Shown here piece by piece: positions 48,004 to 64,000 of a stretch of 64,000 nucleotides of DNA; position 1 is the first letter of the stretch, and each line of letters opens with the position of its first letter. The DNA comes from Vampirovibrionaceae bacterium NZW_1234 (lineage in GTDB: Bacteria > Cyanobacteriota > Vampirovibrionia > Vampirovibrionales > JAGQHJ01), in the NCBI GenBank assembly GCA_041697335.1, contig JBGUGD010000025.1, positions 131,764 to 195,763 on the forward strand. Direction: 5' to 3'. The notes under the pieces were generated by a model that saw only the letters and a list, made by a program, of their open reading frames with translations, did no database searches and was not told where the DNA came from. A program made the position numbers and the translations under genes.

Positions 48004-50625
48004 TTAAGCGGCGCTACTGGCTTGTGACTTTTGACCCAGGGATTCCCAGACCGTCAGGATATCGTGCAACCGTTGACGGGATTGCGGATTACGAATCATC
48101 GAGGCATTAATCTCCCGCATCCAGTCCGTCAGTCTGTAGCCAAAACGTTTATCCCCATCGCCGCCATATTGGTGCGTCAATTCGTGGAGATACGTTGCCA
48201 GGACCTCTTCAAAGGGGTGCGTGTTGAGGTGAGTGCGGTCAATCCAGCAACCTTTAAAGGTATAGGGCGCATGCCAGCTATCGCCAAAATCAGGATATTC
48301 TGTGATGGCCTGACCATAAACATGGCTGCCCTCATTGGCATCTTCACCTTGATCGACCTTGGCGCGAGCCTCCGCTTTGTAGTCAAACAGATAAATCGGC
48401 TGGTCCACGTCAGCCTTACGGATCAGAAGCGGTGATTTTTGCATTTTGGCAATCACCTGATCTTCCAGAAATACCGTTGCGGCTTCTTTCAGAAGATTCA
48501 TCCGCTTGGTTTCGACAATCGTAGGGCGTACACCCTGGTGTTTGCCCAATTCATCCAAAACAGTATCCATGGTGGGAACGCCTACTTTGGCAAAATTATG
48601 ATGCACCATGGTGTACCCGCGTTCTACAAGCGATTTTATGGCATTGGCGCGATTCCCATAAATATGTTCGGGTAAAGCCACGCATTTCAGATTTTTAGGC
48701 ATGCGAAGCCCGCCATTACGATTTCTGTCGGCACTGCCCAATTCACTGAGCAGGGCACCTAGAATGCGAACCGGCACAAGATCCTCACAGCGCTCAATGG
48801 AGGGAGCAACCTTCTGCTGAACCAAGGCCACCGGGCTCCAGAAGTTTTTCAAGTCATACGCGGCTTGCACAATCTGTTCATTGGTCATCGTTTTGACAAA
48901 ATCCTTGTTGAGCAGCTTTGACAAATCGTCATTCGTCAGGAAGGTCCTGTCCCGTCCCACGCTCACATCGGCGGCGGCATTGGGCTTGCGCTTAAACCAC
49001 AAACTCACGTGAGGGGTCTCATTGGCCCATTTACCCCGATCGCCATATTCAAAACGCTGATTGGCCAGGTAGACATTCCCGTTTTGCCCCGTGGGCAGGA
49101 TCTTAAAACCAAAATGGTCGTTTTCGAAAGTCGGGGCCTGGAAGTCCTTGTTTTCAGGATGATAAAAATAATTCATGGCCCGAAAGACCGCCGAAACCAG
49201 GTTTTCATCCTGGGTTTCAAATTCCACGAAATTCCCTTTAATGGGGGGAACCTGCTTCAAGGTCTTGTAAATATAATCTTTCTTCTTAGAATCTCCGGAT
49301 TTGTTGCCGAGCTTGAAGCCCATACGCCAGTCACCGCTCTGGAAGGCAATTTCTTTGACGCCAAATTTGCTGACCATACGGTACGACAACATTTTAGCCC
49401 CTTCACCATACCCTCCGGCATTATAGGGGTTTTCACGTTTATTCCCGGCACCATAGTCTTCAATACATTTTTGCTGGAATTCGCCTTGGCCGCTAATCCG
49501 AACTTTGTAGCTCTTTGTTGCGGGATTGTAATGGACATCGTATTTGACGCCCTCCAGCGTGTGTCCGTGACCGTCATAAAAATTCTGCAATAAATCCCGG
49601 GCCGTTTTGTCCTCGGTCCACTCGGCCAGGGACGAATCACCGTATTCAAACTTGAACTTGGTATTCTGCTCCCCATCCGCCAGGAACTGTCGAATTTCCG
49701 GATCGGTCATATCCAGATTCGGGTTGGGATCCACGTCCGGCCTGATTCGCCCATGTACCGGAATTTCACCCGAAACACGACCTTGAGATTTTAATGTGCG
49801 GATGACATCAGCACCTTTTACGCGTGTCCCGTCAAATATGGGTAGTCCCACCCGGATGGAGGGTGTCGAGACTTGGGATGGCAAATCAAAAACTCGGCTC
49901 TTACCCGCTAACGGATCCGTCGTACTGTTGGTTTGTGCCGGGGCTATCGGATGAGTCACAGGAGCCTGGATCTTGGTTCTCAACGCTTCCAGGCGACTTT
50001 GACGGGTGGTATCCAATTGCCGCACCTGGTCATCGGACATGCCATTTAAAATCGTCCGAAACGTCTGAAGTGCTTGATTATCCTGGGTCAACCTGCGATT
50101 CTCTTTTCTGAGCCTCCGATACCGTTTCTGGAGCTTCTGATACGCATCACTGTCCTGAGCCGCAATTGTCGTATTCCGCCCGGCACCCCTAACCACCGTT
50201 TTCTTACCGCCAGTTGAACTCGTATTCGCGGTCGCTGTCGGTTGTGAACTGGCAGCTCCATTGCCGCGAGCAACAGACCCATTGGTTGAAGCCGTTGGCT
50301 TTCGTTGAGTTTTCGAAGGCTTTGCAGTGCCCGTAGGCGGTTTCTTCCGCTCGCCGGTGATCCATCCGAACACCCAGGCCAGAGAGTTATAAATCAACCG
50401 GAATGGGTAGGTCAAAATATCCCCAATGGTTTGTATGAACGAACGCGATTGCTCTCTGGAGTTGCTGCGTTGGGTATTCGACTCGCTGGCAAAACGAACT
50501 GAATCCGCTTTGGGCTCTAGGCCTTGTGTCAGGAAAATGCTTTTAGCAGACTTGGCTCGGAGAGGAGGCGCAGCAGAATATCCTGTAGAAACAGTAAAGA
50601 CCGGCGAGGTCAAGGCGTTCATCAT
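48004..50625 (-). CDS. GHKL-ATPase-like + HExxH zincin protein with leader and coiled coil
   Basis: RDLLQNFYD, GAGNK, AGGYGEGAK, YLHELTH; leader DSVRFAS. Confidence 0.7.
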   Translation of the reverse strand: MMNALTSPVFTVSTGYSAAPPLRAKSAKSIFLTQGLEPKADSVRFASESNTQRSNSREQSRSFIQTIGDILTYPFRLIYNSLAWVFGWITGERKKPPTGTAKPSKTQRKPTASTNGSVARGNGAASSQPTATANTSSTGGKKTVVRGAGRNTTIAAQDSDAYQKLQKRYRRLRKENRRLTQDNQALQTFRTILNGMSDDQVRQLDTTRQSRLEALRTKIQAPVTHPIAPAQTNSTTDPLAGKSRVFDLPSQVSTPSIRVGLPIFDGTRVKGADVIRTLKSQGRVSGEIPVHGRIRPDVDPNPNLDMTDPEIRQFLADGEQNTKFKFEYGDSSLAEWTEDKTARDLLQNFYDGHGHTLEGVKYDVHYNPATKSYKVRISGQGEFQQKCIEDYGAGNKRENPYNAGGYGEGAKMLSYRMVSKFGVKEIAFQSGDWRMGFKLGNKSGDSKKKDYIYKTLKQVPPIKGNFVEFETQDENLVSAVFRAMNYFYHPENKDFQAPTFENDHFGFKILPTGQNGNVYLANQRFEYGDRGKWANETPHVSLWFKRKPNAAADVSVGRDRTFLTNDDLSKLLNKDFVKTMTNEQIVQAAYDLKNFWSPVALVQQKVAPSIERCEDLVPVRILGALLSELGSADRNRNGGLRMPKNLKCVALPEHIYGNRANAIKSLVERGYTMVHHNFAKVGVPTMDTVLDELGKHQGVRPTIVETKRMNLLKEAATVFLEDQVIAKMQKSPLLIRKADVDQPIYLFDYKAEARAKVDQGEDANEGSHVYGQAITEYPDFGDSWHAPYTFKGCWIDRTHLNTHPFEEVLATYLHELTHQYGGDGDKRFGYRLTDWMREINASMIRNPQSRQRLHDILTVWESLGQKSQASSAA

Positions 50626-51441: not shown

Positions 51442-53424
51442 GTGGTTTTGCGTGTGGATTCGCTGACAACATCTGGAAGCATACGTCAGAATGTACAAGA
51501 GGTCCTTGTGTCCTCACCTTTGTTTTTACAGAGGCCAAGTACACTTTATTCGCCGGTCGTGGATTCGGTTGCCTTCTCGGGCAGAGGCAAGAAAAACAGA
51601 CGTGTTAAACGTTTTCCAGATATTCACCCTCCGCCAATCCCCCAAGGCGAACCGGCACCGGGCATTTTTACCGTCGCTATGCCAGACACCGGCCTACCCC
51701 TCCAGTTTTATCTCAAGACCAGCAAAAGCAAAGCCCCTGGTACTGTAAGCTATGAATGGGAAGATCACCGTATCGGTTCTCAACAATTGGATGTCACCCA
51801 TAGGGTGTCCATGGAGCTACAGGTGCAAGGCCGAAAGCACCTCAAAAAACAGGGCATGAATGCATACAGTTACGATGGGCTTCCTGCCGGAGGGCCGGTC
51901 ACGCGTCTGGACATCCGGAATATTTCAATGCCCTATGAGTCCGAAGAGATGAAACAAACAGTATTACCGGCCTTACTGGAGTATGCGGTGTATAAGAGTC
52001 GGGAACTGGGTATGGAGGGTCGGGTATCCTGGACCTTTAGAAAAGACAACTGGGCCTGGTACACCACGGCTATGAATGCGGGTTTTGTCCCCCGCCCGGA
52101 GCGGGAAACCCCACAGAAGCAGCCTTCAAAAACGATGACGATGACGTTGCCCTCTGCGCATATCCAACGCATCCTGAAATCTCCCAGGTACCATCTTCCG
52201 GTTAATGCTGCCGTTGTCATTCCCAATCCGCTACTTTTTCCCAAGCCGGAGTTCTGGGCCCTGCCTGTGCCCAAGACTCAAACACCATGGCTGAGCTTTG
52301 ACACGCAAGGTGAGGCAAAGCCTGTTTCGACGGCCTCAACCGGACCAACGCTGATGGTTACACCCAATGGTCATGCTTATCTGTATCCCGGCACCGGCGA
52401 CAATCCAAAAGCCACCCTCGTGTCCCGATCCGTCACGCTTGCGGACAGCCCCATCCGACTGTATACCGAGGATGAATTCCAGATAGGGAACAAGGTTTAC
52501 CTGTTGAGTGCGGCCGGTCTCCACCTGCTGACCAGTCAAGCCGAGGTATACCGTTCTATGTTCCCCACCGGGCTCAAGGATCTCCAGTTCCAACAAGGCA
52601 AAATTGGAAATTGCTTCTTTCTGGCAGCCGTCAAAGCATTGACGTATCATCCGCAGGGTAAAGTCACTTTGGCCAATCTCCTAAAATCTCATACCGATGA
52701 GCGCGTCACCCTGCGCCTTACAGCATTTCCTGAAAATCCATTTACCCTGAGCCCCGATACCAGCTATGTGCCCAACGGCGTCAAAACACCGAACCCGGCG
52801 TTAAAACTGCTTGAAGAGGCCTTTGGCCGGTTGCGCCGTCAGTTTGGCTGGGGAGGGAGGTCACTGTCGCATGATCTGTCCAAGTGGCTTGATGGCGGAG
52901 ACCCGGCAGATAGTCTTTACACCCTTACAGGCTGGCCTACGGAGTATTACAGCGGTACTGAGCGCCATACCAAGGCCAAACCCAGATCGGGGAATGTGAC
53001 GTTCTCTGATATCGAAGATGACCATGGTTCCTCTTGGCGAGCCTTATGCGCCTACCTGGATCATCTGGCCGACAACCCCGAGAAATATATCGTGACTGCC
53101 GACACCCCCGAACGTCGTAAAACCTACCATAATCTCATTCGTGGTGGGTTTGTCGACCCCGATTGCCGACTGCTGGAAAACCATGCATTCGCCGTTTGCC
53201 GCATTAACAAAGCGCAAAGAACGCTGACCATTGTCGATCCCCATTATGCCGGTGACAACGCCAGCGAAATTACTCTCAGATATGCCGATGCATATTATTA
53301 TTTCTCCGGGTTTAACGTGGCCCGAGTGCCCCAGGAGTATCATTTTAAACCTGTCGTTCTCCCCGAGAGCGCCCCAAAACGATGGCTCTATCGGGTCGCC
53401 CTATTTTTAAGCCGATTCATGTGA
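51442..53424 (+). CDS. GNAT-like + FHA-like + calpain-like cysteine protease
   Basis: QGKIGNCFFLAAV, LLEEAF, GGDP..LYTLTG, HAF, DPH; leader DSVAFSG. Confidence 0.8.
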   Translation: MVLRVDSLTTSGSIRQNVQEVLVSSPLFLQRPSTLYSPVVDSVAFSGRGKKNRRVKRFPDIHPPPIPQGEPAPGIFTVAMPDTGLPLQFYLKTSKSKAPGTVSYEWEDHRIGSQQLDVTHRVSMELQVQGRKHLKKQGMNAYSYDGLPAGGPVTRLDIRNISMPYESEEMKQTVLPALLEYAVYKSRELGMEGRVSWTFRKDNWAWYTTAMNAGFVPRPERETPQKQPSKTMTMTLPSAHIQRILKSPRYHLPVNAAVVIPNPLLFPKPEFWALPVPKTQTPWLSFDTQGEAKPVSTASTGPTLMVTPNGHAYLYPGTGDNPKATLVSRSVTLADSPIRLYTEDEFQIGNKVYLLSAAGLHLLTSQAEVYRSMFPTGLKDLQFQQGKIGNCFFLAAVKALTYHPQGKVTLANLLKSHTDERVTLRLTAFPENPFTLSPDTSYVPNGVKTPNPALKLLEEAFGRLRRQFGWGGRSLSHDLSKWLDGGDPADSLYTLTGWPTEYYSGTERHTKAKPRSGNVTFSDIEDDHGSSWRALCAYLDHLADNPEKYIVTADTPERRKTYHNLIRGGFVDPDCRLLENHAFAVCRINKAQRTLTIVDPHYAGDNASEITLRYADAYYYFSGFNVARVPQEYHFKPVVLPESAPKRWLYRVALFLSRFM

Positions 53425-58775: not shown

Positions 58776-59232
58776 CGATAAACTCTCGCTCGGCTCTCTA
58801 GAACAGTAAAACGACGGAATATCTTGTTAAAAGGCCCTACACGGTCCCGGTCGAACCAAGGCTCCCGCGATGCAAGGCAAGGATGACACGCTCGTCCATG
58901 GGGTCACCCGCTGTTTCATAATCCTCCTGGGATCCGTCTCATCCTATTCTGCCATACGTCCCCATCCAATCCCAAGCGCTTCCCCTACTACGTGGCATGT
59001 AACAGTTACATTTCCCAACGCGGTCCCTTCAACCCGCCAGGCGCCCGCATCCACATCCGGAGCAACAATACCACATTGTAAACACCCATTTACACAGTCC
59101 ATCCGGAGCAAATACAGCGATTTACCTTGAAAACCGCTAATCTAGCGCTTCATATTTCCAAACACACCTTCAGATTTATACGCATGAGCCGATACCCAAC
59201 GCATGTCGTGCAGCGATCAAGGTGTGCCATTG

Positions 59233-61728
59233 ATGAGGATAAACAGGTCTTTTAACGGGTTTACCCTGGTAGAAAACATGGTTACCGCCGTCATTATCGG
59301 CGTTATTGTGACGTTTTCCCTCACGTCTCTCGTCCAGAATAACCAGAAGGCATCCATCGACTCGAAGATAAAAACCACCCAGCATCACCTGCACGAACTG
59401 GCCGCAATGGCCAATGTAAACGGCAACATGAACCGTCCACCCAGTGATATTTTCAAGTCATTGGCCGGTGTTGCCGATGTAAGAAGCTTCACGGATATGG
59501 CGGAGATGAAAACCCCTTTGGGTAAACTCCGTGTGCCCCATCAATGGGCACCCAACGCCAAGGGCGTCGCATTAATCCAGGCATTTCTGGACGAGGCACC
59601 CGATGCCGACCCCGAGTGTTTCGTGATATTTCAGTCCGGCCATGTACAACAGGCAAACGGACTATCCGGGTGCAACAATAACAGTGTCACCTGGGATGAG
59701 ATTCTCAACGAGCTGGGCCACGACAACCCCATCGCCCAGGATGCTTTTGAGGACTACCAACACCTTGCCAACAATCCACCATCCGCCACGGAATCGGAAA
59801 TTTCAACGGATTTCCCCTTTGACGACGCTGATGAGAGGGAAGATGTCTCAGAGCCGCCCCCACCGAATCCGGGCTTTGGATTGGATGCACCGCCCCTGAC
59901 ACTGCCCATTACCCTCAGTTGGTGTGAAGAACTTTACACCCCTGTTGACGGGTCACTGCCCCAATTCGATCCAATCAAGCTGACCGATGCCACTGCCGCC
60001 TTCGGCGGAAAAACGTTAACGCAAATTCAGCAAACCACAACCACCAACGCTGGGCTGATTAAGTTTCGCGAGTTTCTGGTCGGCGGTGGATTCAACTATC
60101 TGGATACCAACGGCAACAAAAAGCTGGAGACGACCGAACTGAACGCGGCCGCCAGTCTGGACAAAACCGACACCACCGGGTCATCGGGCGGAAACTACGT
60201 GCTGAGTTATGCCGATCTTCAGAACCGCATCGGCAATAACAATTTAAATGCCTGCAATCTGGTCGAACAACGAATTGTCGATGCTGAAGCCGCCATTAAC
60301 CAGGCTGCACAGGAAAGAGACACAGCCATCACAGCCGCAACCAGTGCCTACTATGCCGCCCTCGAAGAAGCCACCAAGGACAAGCAGGAAGCCATTAACG
60401 CTGCCACGGCGGCCAAGAACACGGCGCTCGCGCAAGCCGATGATGCTCGGGATACGGCGATTGCCGAAGCCGCAGAAGCCAGAGACAAAGCCTTGGCCGA
60501 GGCACAACGGGTCAGAGATGCCATCATCGCTGAAGACGAAATCAATATCCGAGCCATTCGCGACAGTGCCATTGCCGAAGCCAAGGACGCGCGAGACGCA
60601 GCGATTCGCATTGCCACTGAAATCCGGGATAACATTCTGGATGCAGCCAAGGCCCTTCGGGATGCAGCAATTGCAGAACTCGAAGCCGATAGAATCGCAG
60701 CCATCGCTGCCGCAAAAGATATCCGAACCAATGCCATTGCCGAAGCTCTGGCCCAAAAGAACGAAAGCCTGGCTGTGGCTCTTGACGTCAAAAATGCCGC
60801 TATAGCTCAGGCTGCCAACGAGCGTGATGCCATTATTGCCGAGGCCACACGTGTCAGAGATGCGGCCCTCCAGGAAGCCATCGCAGCACGAGACGCCGCC
60901 TTACAGGCAGCTACAACCGCCGCTCAGCGTACAGCCGCCATCAATGCATACAATCGTGCGGTTTCAATTGCCAACACAACCTACAATCAAGCTACAAATG
61001 CCGCAAGAACCCGGTACAACAGTGCTGTCCAAACGGCCAATGCAACCTACAACAGAACGGCCAACATCGCCAACGCAACCTATAATTCCAGCGTATCTGC
61101 CGCCAATGTTGCTTACAATGCAGCGGTTTACGATGCCAATGTGACCCGGAACAAAGCGGTGTACAATGCCAATGTCGCCTACAACGTGGTGGCAACCACT
61201 GCCAACGCCGCTCGCAATGTTGCCGTGGGGGCAGCCAATTCGGCCTACGCCATTGCGGTCAATTCTGCCAATACCAATTACGCCATTGCCTACAGAACAA
61301 CCGCCAAAACGGCAGAGGCCAATTATCAAAAGACCGTCACTGCGATTCAGACGACCTACAACCGTCAAGTAGCCACCGCCGATGCGGCCTACAACCGGGC
61401 GGCACAAGTGGTCAATACCCGTTTCAATGCTGCCGTTCAGGTGGCCAATGCCAACCACACCCGCGACGTCAACACGGCAACCCATCTTCGCAACGTTGCC
61501 GTCAATGCCGCAAAAACGGCTTATAGCGTCGAAACCCGGGTTCATACGGCGGTACTGAACCAAAGCCGTCAACAGGCCGGACGCCTCATGGCTGCCGAGA
61601 ACAATCTACGAACGGCCAACCAGCAACTTCAGAATGCAACTACCCCCCAAGGTGTCCGAACCGCCCAAGTCCGCCTGTATTACGCCAGAACCGCCGTCGC
61701 TTCGGCCCGCCGTTCCATCACCGGATAA
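59233..61728 (+). CDS. Giant type IV pilin/pseudopilin-like protein with EF-hand-like motif and hendecad coiled coil
   Basis: G|FTLVE prepilin cleavage motif plus hydrophobic helix; DTNGNKKLETTEL; about 36 eleven-residue repeats. Confidence 0.8.
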   Translation: MRINRSFNGFTLVENMVTAVIIGVIVTFSLTSLVQNNQKASIDSKIKTTQHHLHELAAMANVNGNMNRPPSDIFKSLAGVADVRSFTDMAEMKTPLGKLRVPHQWAPNAKGVALIQAFLDEAPDADPECFVIFQSGHVQQANGLSGCNNNSVTWDEILNELGHDNPIAQDAFEDYQHLANNPPSATESEISTDFPFDDADEREDVSEPPPPNPGFGLDAPPLTLPITLSWCEELYTPVDGSLPQFDPIKLTDATAAFGGKTLTQIQQTTTTNAGLIKFREFLVGGGFNYLDTNGNKKLETTELNAAASLDKTDTTGSSGGNYVLSYADLQNRIGNNNLNACNLVEQRIVDAEAAINQAAQERDTAITAATSAYYAALEEATKDKQEAINAATAAKNTALAQADDARDTAIAEAAEARDKALAEAQRVRDAIIAEDEINIRAIRDSAIAEAKDARDAAIRIATEIRDNILDAAKALRDAAIAELEADRIAAIAAAKDIRTNAIAEALAQKNESLAVALDVKNAAIAQAANERDAIIAEATRVRDAALQEAIAARDAALQAATTAAQRTAAINAYNRAVSIANTTYNQATNAARTRYNSAVQTANATYNRTANIANATYNSSVSAANVAYNAAVYDANVTRNKAVYNANVAYNVVATTANAARNVAVGAANSAYAIAVNSANTNYAIAYRTTAKTAEANYQKTVTAIQTTYNRQVATADAAYNRAAQVVNTRFNAAVQVANANHTRDVNTATHLRNVAVNAAKTAYSVETRVHTAVLNQSRQQAGRLMAAENNLRTANQQLQNATTPQGVRTAQVRLYYARTAVASARRSITG

Positions 61729-62579: not shown

Positions 62580-63962
62580 TCACAGCCCCTGGAATAAAGC
62601 AGCGGTATTATATTGAAAATTTTCATAGCCTTCACGGATCGATTGATGAATTTCAAACGTGACATTATCCAGTTGATTTTTCAGAGTCTGGGCCTGTTGT
62701 TTTTTGGAGTTCAGGTTCGTTTGAAACGTCTGCATGAGCGTATCACGTTCAGCAATTTTTTGATTTATTTCCTGATTTAATTGTTGAATCTCTTGATCAT
62801 AAACCTCTATTTGAGATTCATTCGAGGCAATAGTTTGTTCAATGTTATTTACACTTGCCTCCAAGGAACAAATCGTATCTTGAGGTAAATTGCTATCGTC
62901 ATTCAGATTAATTGACTGTAACTGGTTTCTTGTCTCTTCCGCAGCTAACCGATCATTCACGGCCGCCTCTTCATTATTCATGATCTCGGTCTGGTCAGAG
63001 ATCAGAGCACTTATGATCGACTGTACCTGTTGTTGAGAAACCGGCTGTTCCAATCCGCTTAAACTACTCGATAAGCCTTCTAGTACACCTTTGGTATAAT
63101 TCAGTCTGGCATTCTTACGGGATAGAAAATCACGGGTTTCTTGACGTTCATCCCGTTCCTTGGTTAAGGAATTAATGTCATTGGTCCGGGATTTATACAA
63201 TGCACTGTAGTCAATTTTAAGCGTCAGCATGTCCCCATGGAGATCACTGATCTGACCATGCAAATTCTCGAATTGCGTTGTCAAATTCGTAATCGTTCCC
63301 ATTAATTGATTTGCCATTGTTGTGGCTTGGGCTTTCATCCGAGCATTCAGGATTGGTGCTTTGTTCGGGTCAGCCTGTATGCGCATAAAGGTCGGGTATA
63401 CACCAGGCTGTAGTAGCTGTGAATTCGCTAATCCCATCATTTTGGAGACTATAGGTTCGTTATTTCCATTTAAATTGTAGTGATCGACGCCAAACACATG
63501 ATAGATGCCCTTCTTTCTTTCAGGTTTATATTCATACCAGACATCGGTTGCAAGCTTATAGACTTGCTCATAATTAAATAAGGGCACCTGAACAGGTTGA
63601 CTGGCCTCTTCAGTCGTCGTTGTCGTTGGAGTTGTATTAGCTGTTGATTGAATAGAGGATGCTTGCTGTGAGGAATTCATTGCCGACATAGTGGTTGCGG
63701 AAGCAGAAGAGCCTGCTAAAGCTGAAAATGCATTATTTAGTGGAGACACGGGCGTGGATGAGACAGAATTTATCGTCGTCATTTGACTGGGTGTACTGTT
63801 GACAGCGTTAGTAGATGTGCCTTGAGTCCCGCTATTGAGCGTGACATTCGGTATGGATTGATTTGTAGAAATAAGAGGGTGCGGAAAAAGGTTGTGAATT
63901 TTCTGAGGCGTTAAAATAGAGGAAAGGCATTGAGAGAGGAGCTTTCCAAATGAATTTTGCAC
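62580..63962 (-). CDS. S/T-rich N-terminus plus long coiled-coil hypothetical protein; start uncertain near window edge
   Basis: Low-complexity S/T/N region followed by heptad-rich Q/E/N helices. Confidence 0.7.
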   Translation of the reverse strand: MQNSFGKLLSQCLSSILTPQKIHNLFPHPLISTNQSIPNVTLNSGTQGTSTNAVNSTPSQMTTINSVSSTPVSPLNNAFSALAGSSASATTMSAMNSSQQASSIQSTANTTPTTTTTEEASQPVQVPLFNYEQVYKLATDVWYEYKPERKKGIYHVFGVDHYNLNGNNEPIVSKMMGLANSQLLQPGVYPTFMRIQADPNKAPILNARMKAQATTMANQLMGTITNLTTQFENLHGQISDLHGDMLTLKIDYSALYKSRTNDINSLTKERDERQETRDFLSRKNARLNYTKGVLEGLSSSLSGLEQPVSQQQVQSIISALISDQTEIMNNEEAAVNDRLAAEETRNQLQSINLNDDSNLPQDTICSLEASVNNIEQTIASNESQIEVYDQEIQQLNQEINQKIAERDTLMQTFQTNLNSKKQQAQTLKNQLDNVTFEIHQSIREGYENFQYNTAALFQGL

Positions 63963-64000
63963 AGTTTGTTGTGAATGAGGTCTGTCCTGAGTACCGATTT

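Follow-up and report, generated by a model that had tools for sequence, protein, structure and literature searches.

Modular type IV pilins, such as PilB and PilC of S. sanguinis, CofB of enterotoxigenic Escherichia coli and ComZ of T. thermophilus, are described as a carrier plus an effector module, and most have binding roles and a predicted location at the pilus tip (Raynaud et al. 2021, PMC8179133). The window studied here, the whole stretch of 64,000 nucleotides taken from contig JBGUGD010000025.1 of Vampirovibrionaceae bacterium NZW_1234 (assembly GCA_041697335.1), contains an open reading frame (ORF) for an 831-residue prepilin that shares the layout of these proteins: a class III signal, a pilin module, a linker and a large module unrelated to pili, with several such proteins in one genome. 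Whereas the extra modules of described modular pilins are globular or beta-repeat binding domains, that of the present protein, hereafter the rod pilin, is predicted to be a two-helix rod of ~410 residues. Its Ala-rich 11-mers, in a long helix folded midway into an antiparallel hairpin, resemble Maxi, the hyperactive type I antifreeze protein of winter flounder (4KE2), from which it differs in sequence (18% identity), in having two distinct arms of double the length, in a core of Arg, Tyr, Ile and Val, in its fusion to a pilin and in its warm habitat. The arms of SMC and MukB proteins (7OGT, 5XG2) likewise form a long intramolecular antiparallel coiled coil with a discontinuity level in both strands, but these are heptad-based, whereas the rod is hendecad-based, extracellular, ends in a bare turn and lacks an ATPase head or hinge, only pilin N-terminal families being matched. 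The literature searched shows no pilin with such a rod, Dataset S1 of PMC8179133 (264 architectures) lying outside that coverage, and no surface protein with a hairpin of hendecads and alanine; a hendecad-family survey (J Struct Biol 215:108007) may describe the module. A first-pass annotation had called the architecture atypical for a pilin, which is apt for the unusual rod and not for the large modular pilin as such, already a known class (PMC8179133).

The rod is built of hendecads in the order 7, DEIN, 11, turn, 11, TAKT, 7, and this count, given for 60304 to 61542 in the first-pass annotation, is exact. So is the mirror about the turn, with 121 residues from the turn to the insert on either side and 202 residues in each arm. 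The symmetry is confined to the protein, as the DNA of the arms shows neither a palindrome nor a recent duplication, and third-position identity between repeats of 0.39–0.44 marks the repeats as old at the DNA level. Self-identity at a lag of 11 gives 71 matches in arm 1 (shuffle mean 31, maximum 47) and 68 in arm 2 (mean 27, maximum 43; 2000 shuffles each), and this is the strongest 11-periodic protein among the 4221 ORFs of the genome in which periodicity was ranked; a second copy of the rod was not found among its 8481 ORFs. One template underlies both arms: positions 1 and 8 are Ala, position 5 is large and position 9 is Ile/Leu or Val. The arms differ in chemistry, as arm 1 has Arg or Lys at position 5 in 17 of its 18 rows and a net charge of −12, and arm 2 has Tyr there in 13 of 18 and a net charge of +12. 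The overall Ala content is 31%. The four core positions of a hendecad are named a, d, e and h. A Fourier period of 3.67 over each entire arm, together with the conservation of positions 1, 5, 8 and 9, agrees with the 11/3 coiled-coil periodicity as defined in PMC8016460.

An AlphaFold model of residues 224–831, run on the single sequence, places helices at 326–430, 436–559, 563–688, 694–801 and 805–830; the four long ones are interrupted only at DEIN, the turn and TAKT, and pLDDT is ~80–90 in the inner segments and ~66–76 in the outer ones. The model overlays Maxi at 2.4 Å across 196 of 196 residues with its centre at residues 560–561, and the remaining 24 of the 25 structural matches with at least 150 aligned residues gave 4.2–90.6 Å. 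At the register set by the model turn (residue sum 1122), side-chain volumes are anticorrelated (r = −0.43, the most negative of 30 registers), no like charges are paired, and in every core layer a usually-Ala position stands opposite a usually-large position. Within the inner arms, row-specific exceptions to this scheme compensate one another (z = −2.2, P = 0.017). A single Arg/Tyr swap in row 17, which has a chance of 3 in 18, is given no weight. The proposal of the first pass, an antiparallel hairpin of hendecads that turns back at its centre, has the support of the model, the Maxi overlay and the packing register alike: we regard it as highly probable that the arms form such an intramolecular two-helix structure, in which the inner arms are predicted to pair antiparallel within one chain.

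The N-terminus identifies the protein as a prepilin, as had been proposed. The sequence G/FTLVE stands at residues 9–14, the protein matches Pfam N_methyl (22.6 bits, cut-off 21.2) and TIGR02532 (16.9, cut-off 16.3), and a short hydrophilic leader ending in Gly, Phe1, Glu5 and ~20 hydrophobic residues agree with the class III signal as defined for type IV pilins in PMC8179133. The Cys pair closing the head is present (Cys129 and Cys147); Cys129 is conserved in all four of the paralogous heads, and each has another Cys further downstream. Such a pair closing the D-region is a feature of type IVa pilins. The model of the head has a helix at residues 12–61 plus strands, in the pilin topology of a long alpha1 packed on an antiparallel beta-sheet, at low confidence (pLDDT ~50–69 over residues 41–178); its top 5 structural neighbours in VIA are pilins or pseudopilins (Z 4.5–5.3), and 13 of the top 20 VIA rows carry such names at Z values of only 3.6–5.3. 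The first pass had left the choice between a type IV pilus and a type II secretion system (T2SS). The former is favoured, in its type IVa form, by genes for PilB, PilC, a secretin and two PilT-family ATPases in the genome, whereas T2SS pseudopilin families score far under their NCBIfam cut-offs (GspH 20.9 versus 80; GspG 18.6 versus 88.85).

Three tandem paralogs on contig C29 (932, 802 and 801 residues; L016:8883-16881, that is G000:C29, ~192900-200900, + strand) match residues 5–191 of the rod pilin at E values of 1e-8 to 1e-15, and 18 head positions are invariant among the four proteins. After the acidic linker, the paralogs carry beta-rich domains and a C-terminal SPM-like module. Its closest clusters in the Atlas all belong to SPM (PF26745; score 0.84), which is no more than a lead, and a search of PDB sequences gave no match. 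The SPM of FrpC cuts an Asp-Pro bond (PMC7078468); at what looks like the equivalent of this scissile site the paralogs read Ser-Pro, and their module is possibly a non-cleaving, Ca2+-folded tip domain. A head profile run over 49 genomes of the order gave 415 matches, and among the 150 listed only the four giant pilins lie in frames longer than 272 residues; the 40 head matches in V. chlorellavorus lie in frames of 192–281 residues, and a head search for further giant pilins gave 2 matches, both in this genome. On sequence grounds the head is a carrier for differing passengers, as in modular pilins, because three paralogs with the same head bear other modules. The arrangement of pilin module, linker and an extra module that is not pilus-specific is that of a modular pilin, and the rod type also occurs on a non-pilin. 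Machinery is encoded elsewhere in the genome, namely PilD, a secretin-PilB-PilC cluster, a Tad-like cluster and the two PilT-family ATPases, the latter above cut-off, and 14 ORFs have a class III-like start. A further cluster (L023:4378-11005, G000:C9, − strand) holds four pilin-like genes (665, 906, 395 and 229 residues) that resemble a minor-pilin tip set; the 906-residue product has G/NSTTL without Glu5, like PilX and GspK, and no NCBIfam match.

Searches for relatives of the rod returned little beyond the protein itself. A word search of 5.8 billion proteins found only self among 8000 scored candidates, 401 genomes of the class gave 2 weak non-self matches (one overlaps another gene in its opposite frame, the other is an unrelated small helical protein), and scans of metagenome and genome contigs gave none; phage and PHROGs searches yielded nothing meaningful, and Pfam, NCBIfam and PDB sequence searches no match. 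The best ESM Atlas score was 0.78, to small viral clusters, and is a lead only; BFVD returned generic long coils, with two phage proteins of 260–320 residues at 24% identity. A two-row profile had 10 weak non-self matches (E 1e-6 to 1e-3), two of which were inspected and rejected: judged by their sequences, one is a thioredoxin whose tail is rich in Ala and the other is stomatin-like. A full phmmer scan gave 29 matches (28 non-self), mostly proteins with 11-mer repeats of one type (tape measures, LEA-like, apolipoprotein-like), and both arm types occur as separate blocks in 3 of the 28, P0017, P0020 and P0027, none of which has a Pfam match; the arm order in P0027 is reversed, P0035 has shorter similar stretches, and the other matches were set aside as compositional. 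One of P0017, P0020, P0027 and P0035, all of them unrelated hypothetical proteins, combines a lipoprotein-like N-terminus with reversed arm order.

The closest analog is P0017, a 715-residue hypothetical protein (JGI/IMG) without a pilin signal, which is 33% identical over 296 residues. Its module, at residues 492–715, repeats both arm types of the rod pilin, in unchanged order, in the same packing register and with equal arms: 9 rows of the Arg/Asp type, a turn and 9 rows of the Tyr/Asn type, with the arm types statistically distinct (permutation P = 0.00015) and side-chain volumes anticorrelated (r = −0.50, the most negative of 18 registers). Unlike the rod pilin, it has 9 + 9 repeats without inserts, Cys494 and Cys712 at its two ends and no pilin head. 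The first-pass annotation had proposed to check that homologs gain or lose repeats equally in both arms; the equality is seen in P0017 with its adjoining arms, which is an analog rather than an ortholog. As both arm types recur in an unrelated non-pilin, we read the rod as a probable portable hairpin module, and the likeness may also represent convergence on a simple low-complexity pattern rather than homology.

Our preferred reading is that of a modular minor type IV pilin whose two-helix rod is shown on a type IVa pilus as a side-on adhesive surface. Taken whole, this reading stands about evenly between right and wrong; display on the pilus is probable, and, given the hairpin and its display, an adhesive role is only slightly less so. 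The class III signal is accompanied in the genome by genes for cognate PilD, PilB, PilC, secretin and PilT-family proteins; the leader would be cleaved, Phe1 methylated and the subunit incorporated at the tip or sparsely along the pilus. The arms are predicted to zip small against large (Ala against Tyr/Arg, Ala against Val/Ile) into a thin, near-untwisted rod of ~18 nm from turn to inserts and 30–35 nm when extended, bendable at the inserts, with a Ca2+-binding base and the C-terminal helices possibly stiffening its root. Helical-wheel angles combined with antiparallel geometry put positions 5 and 9 of both arms toward one face, repeating every three turns. The most tentative step is that the resulting Arg/Tyr stripe, flanked by Asp and Asn and recurring every ~16 Å, might bind a repetitive partner such as a mat polysaccharide or sheath, a mineral or the surface of another cell, which pilus retraction would draw in. 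Since the distal end is a bare turn of nine residues without a domain, the flank likely does the binding; as modelled, the rod carries nothing at its tip for which it could serve as a stalk, and the earlier suggestion of an adhesin stalk does not fit in its literal sense. Nothing supports a ruler or a prey-contact spike, two other roles floated in the first pass. In V. chlorellavorus, predation has been proposed to involve a type IV secretion system (T4SS; PMC4451040). Such a system is not evident here, as a PF03135 search of the genome, which is 95% complete, gave no VirB4-type domain.

Several observations weigh against this reading. The hairpin model has a pTM of 0.37 and exceeds a pLDDT of 60 in only 2 of 5 models, and the Maxi match, at Z 10.6, falls within the range that long helices reach by their common arrangement. 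The volume anticorrelation recurs at +11 (r = −0.40) and thus fixes the phase and not the row, the outer arms show no row-specific compensation at the model-turn register (z = −0.4), and 126 register and subset tests were run, several of which reached P < 0.05 away from that register. For the weak model of the head, Foldseek gave no match at E ≤ 0.001. Protein, class-genome, contig and phmmer searches gave no ortholog and hence no conservation or covariation across species, and in P0020 and P0027 the arm types are parted by inserted segments, with symmetry not established. Finally, the gene stands alone between dnaE and a small ORF, away from the pilus loci, and no RNA run is among the runs listed as containing it.

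The strongest alternative concerns the matched inserts. At 0.1485 nm per residue the rod measures 18 nm over its inner part, 30 nm over a whole arm and 35 nm with the base helices. The inner 18 nm is well supported by the model as a rigid length, whereas the earlier claim of a rod of ~30 nm stands for arm length and not for straightness: the model is broken at both inserts, and the best long match past them is the folded cohesin elbow 7ogt, which aligns 314 residues (model 144–540) at 9.4 Å, no worse than inner-only matches, where straight hairpins carried past the inserts gave 16–18 Å (2ch7) and 77 Å (8i4x). These breaks and the folded-elbow match require the straight 30 nm rod to be qualified, as the inserts may form an elbow and 30 nm is the extended length only. 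With a true elbow, as in SMC arms, the rod could jack-knife to ~18 nm, its base then surrounded by four helices, perhaps so as to fit into the periplasm, and open to 30–35 nm outside or under tension; SMC elbows are also predicted breaks in both strands (10.1101/464701). Yet AlphaFold often bends long coiled coils spuriously (PMC11676326), and the 3.67 phase runs on across both inserts, where the four added residues make the 11/3 locally 15/4, a known periodicity of continuous-helix coiled coils (PMC8016460), which favours a continuing rod. The outer faces of the outer rows are polar (large hydrophobics at 8 of 98 non-core positions, versus 17 of 98 in inner rows 5–11; clustering P = 0.10) and so offer no clear fold-back interface. 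The ranges aligned past the inserts are symmetric, which suggests that the outer arms pair, but the model looks bent and no row-specific signal is seen there. We consider a flexible joint at the inserts likely and a true jack-knife unlikely. A broader proposal, that an undescribed portable family of two-chemistry hendecad hairpins was here grafted onto a pilin with an SMC-like elbow to give a hinged, lever-like appendage, is to be judged just as doubtful.

A less probable alternative is that the hairpins of two pilins associate as a four-helix bundle, or exchange their acidic and basic arms, and so join pili or cells of the mat to one another. Maxi, with the same hairpin geometry, dimerises into a four-helix bundle (PMC5304152), the arms of the rod are oppositely charged, some Val, Ile and Tyr are exposed in the inner rows 5–11, and thick bundles of pili have been observed in V. 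chlorellavorus (PMC4451040). The charges are, however, already paired inside one hairpin, the non-core faces are mostly polar (mean hydropathy below 0), and the 31% Ala of the rod is low against 62–75% in type I antifreeze proteins (PMC5304152).

It is somewhat more improbable again that the protein is a periplasmic strut or ruler, which its pilin helix would hold in the inner membrane instead of its being assembled into pili. The gene is unlinked to pilus loci and the rod has no tip domain. Its length is of the order of the width of the periplasm. Against such a role, Phe1 and Glu5 are intact in a pilin-like head with its Cys pair, this head bears, in the paralogs, Ca2+ and beta-sandwich modules of an extracellular type, and no outer-membrane-binding motif was recognised in the prepilin by Pfam and NCBIfam scans.

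That the arms do not pair with each other, forming parallel oligomers or amphipathic helices of the LEA or apolipoprotein kind with the symmetry incidental, would suit the prevalence of one-type 11-mer proteins among the phmmer matches, but the matching numbers of repeats, the two inserts of one size equally far from the turn, the complementarity of the layers, the Cys-bounded analog P0017 and a confident hairpin model make it very unlikely. Ice binding, to which the Maxi overlay and the shared 11-residue spacing could point, can be set aside as barely credible, as no position has Thr in more than 6 of 18 rows and the TX10 repeat (defined in PMC5304152) is thus absent, so that the likeness to Maxi is one of geometry and not of function, while the Ala content is low and 11 of 11 runs containing the gene are labelled as hot-spring or microbial-mat metagenomes, possibly from one campaign.

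The sequence itself appears sound. All of the sequence features named in the first pass were found at their positions in the ORF; an alternative in-frame ATG lies at 59203, and AAGGT stands 9 nt upstream for the 59233 start only. Contigs from public runs, which may contain the source sample itself, cover DEIN (280 and 295 bp) and the turn with TAKT (707 bp) without a differing base or gap, and an assembly error is for this reason an unlikely origin of the symmetric repeats. Among the 7 of 11 runs compared there are no indels; the one missense change, C>T at 61706 (Ala825 to Val), comes from a single contig of run X1 at a depth of only 3.5 and may be an error. A promoter and terminator scan of the gene stayed at chance level. 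The gene is divergent from dnaE and is followed by a small unannotated ORF; the adjoining DnaE shares 61–68% identity with database entries under the names Vampirovibrio or Vampirovibrionales and 55% with one Gastranaerophilales record. The bacterium is a relative of the algal predator Vampirovibrio. We take the rod pilin as real and as found in one genome, with a proposed function; its segments are given in Table 1.

Table 1. Segments of the rod-pilin gene and the evidence for each, with nucleotide positions in the window
Feature	Residues	Position	Strand	Evidence
Prepilin gene with predicted hairpin rod		59233-61728	+	831 aa ORF
Class III leader peptide, basic, last residue Gly	1-9	59233..59259	+	sequence; Pfam N_methyl above cut-off
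Type IV pilin module: F1, E5, hydrophobic alpha1, predicted long helix and beta-meander, Cys129/Cys147	10-180	59260..59772	+	common to three paralogs; model; structural neighbours
Acidic Pro-rich linker	181-225	59773..59907	+	sequence; paralogs with similar acidic linkers; unstructured in model
Base domain: EF-hand-like loop, possible degenerate second loop, Cys231/Cys341	226-345	59908..60267	+	pattern test; pLDDT <50 nearly throughout in both models
EF-hand-like loop	291-302	60103-60138	+	pattern test
Arm 1 outer, 7 hendecads, Arg/Asp type	358-434	60304..60534	+	repeat count, periodicity
Insert DEIN, half of matched discontinuity	435-438	60535..60546	+	sequence; model helix break, pLDDT <50
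Arm 1 inner, 11 hendecads	439-559	60547..60909	+	repeats; pLDDT ~80-90
Hairpin turn ATTAAQRTA	560-568	60910..60936	+	model turns at aa 560-562; Maxi overlay centre aa 560-561
Arm 2 inner, 11 hendecads, Tyr/Asn type	569-689	60937..61299	+	repeats; pLDDT ~80-90
Insert TAKT, other half of matched discontinuity	690-693	61300..61311	+	sequence; model helix break
Arm 2 outer, 7 hendecads	694-770	61312..61542	+	repeats; pLDDT ~70-76
Basic C-terminal helix-turn-helix, stop codon	771-831	61543..61728	+	model: helix to 801, turn, helix 805-830

Between linker and rod, the base domain has a pLDDT below 50 nearly throughout in both models. The EF-hand-like motif lies where the first pass had placed it and agrees with 4 of 5 consensus positions of D-x-[DN]-x-[DN]-G-x5-[DE] (motif from PMC7078468), Lys replacing Gly6, in a region of low model confidence; Pfam gave no match for it. 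A flanked form of the pattern, composed after the sequence had been seen, occurs 11 times in the 995,951 residues of the long ORFs of the genome and in 0.015% of segment shuffles. The base domain may accordingly be read as a putative Ca2+-binding unit with a candidate Cys231/Cys341 disulfide, and in the model the C-terminal helices would clamp the base of the rod.

Other ORFs drew attention. The window holds a Ser/Thr/Asn-rich ORF of at least 460 residues with a long C-terminal coiled coil (62580-64000, − strand), which by eye is richer in AT than its neighbours and gave only weak generic coiled-coil matches; a 660-residue protein (51442-53424, + strand) with a calpain-family Peptidase_C2 match above cut-off and a look-alike at G000:C29:203044-204207; and an 873-residue protein (48004-50625, − strand) that contains a HELTH zincin motif and matches WLM weakly, at a score under the cut-off. 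On a further contig, a 464-residue Pro-rich protein (G000:C28:11977-13368, + strand) has near-perfect repeats of ~22 residues with KYPSDQETG.

The rod pilin widens the idea of modular pilins beyond globular binding domains: its passenger is purely fibrous and exceeds in length the envelope that it would have to cross, which raises the question of what the secretin and the periplasm can let through. If the jack-knife were true, a rod of ~18 nm inside the envelope would become one of 30–35 nm on the pilus, which is not described for type IV filaments. The module itself appears to be an unnamed hairpin in secreted proteins of unrelated bacteria and offers coiled-coil design a natural, highly regular monomeric two-helix hendecad rod, as predicted, of 18 layers per arm, with a Maxi-like geometry reached in a hot-spring organism. 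For this poorly known lineage, the four giant pilins are candidate attachment factors.

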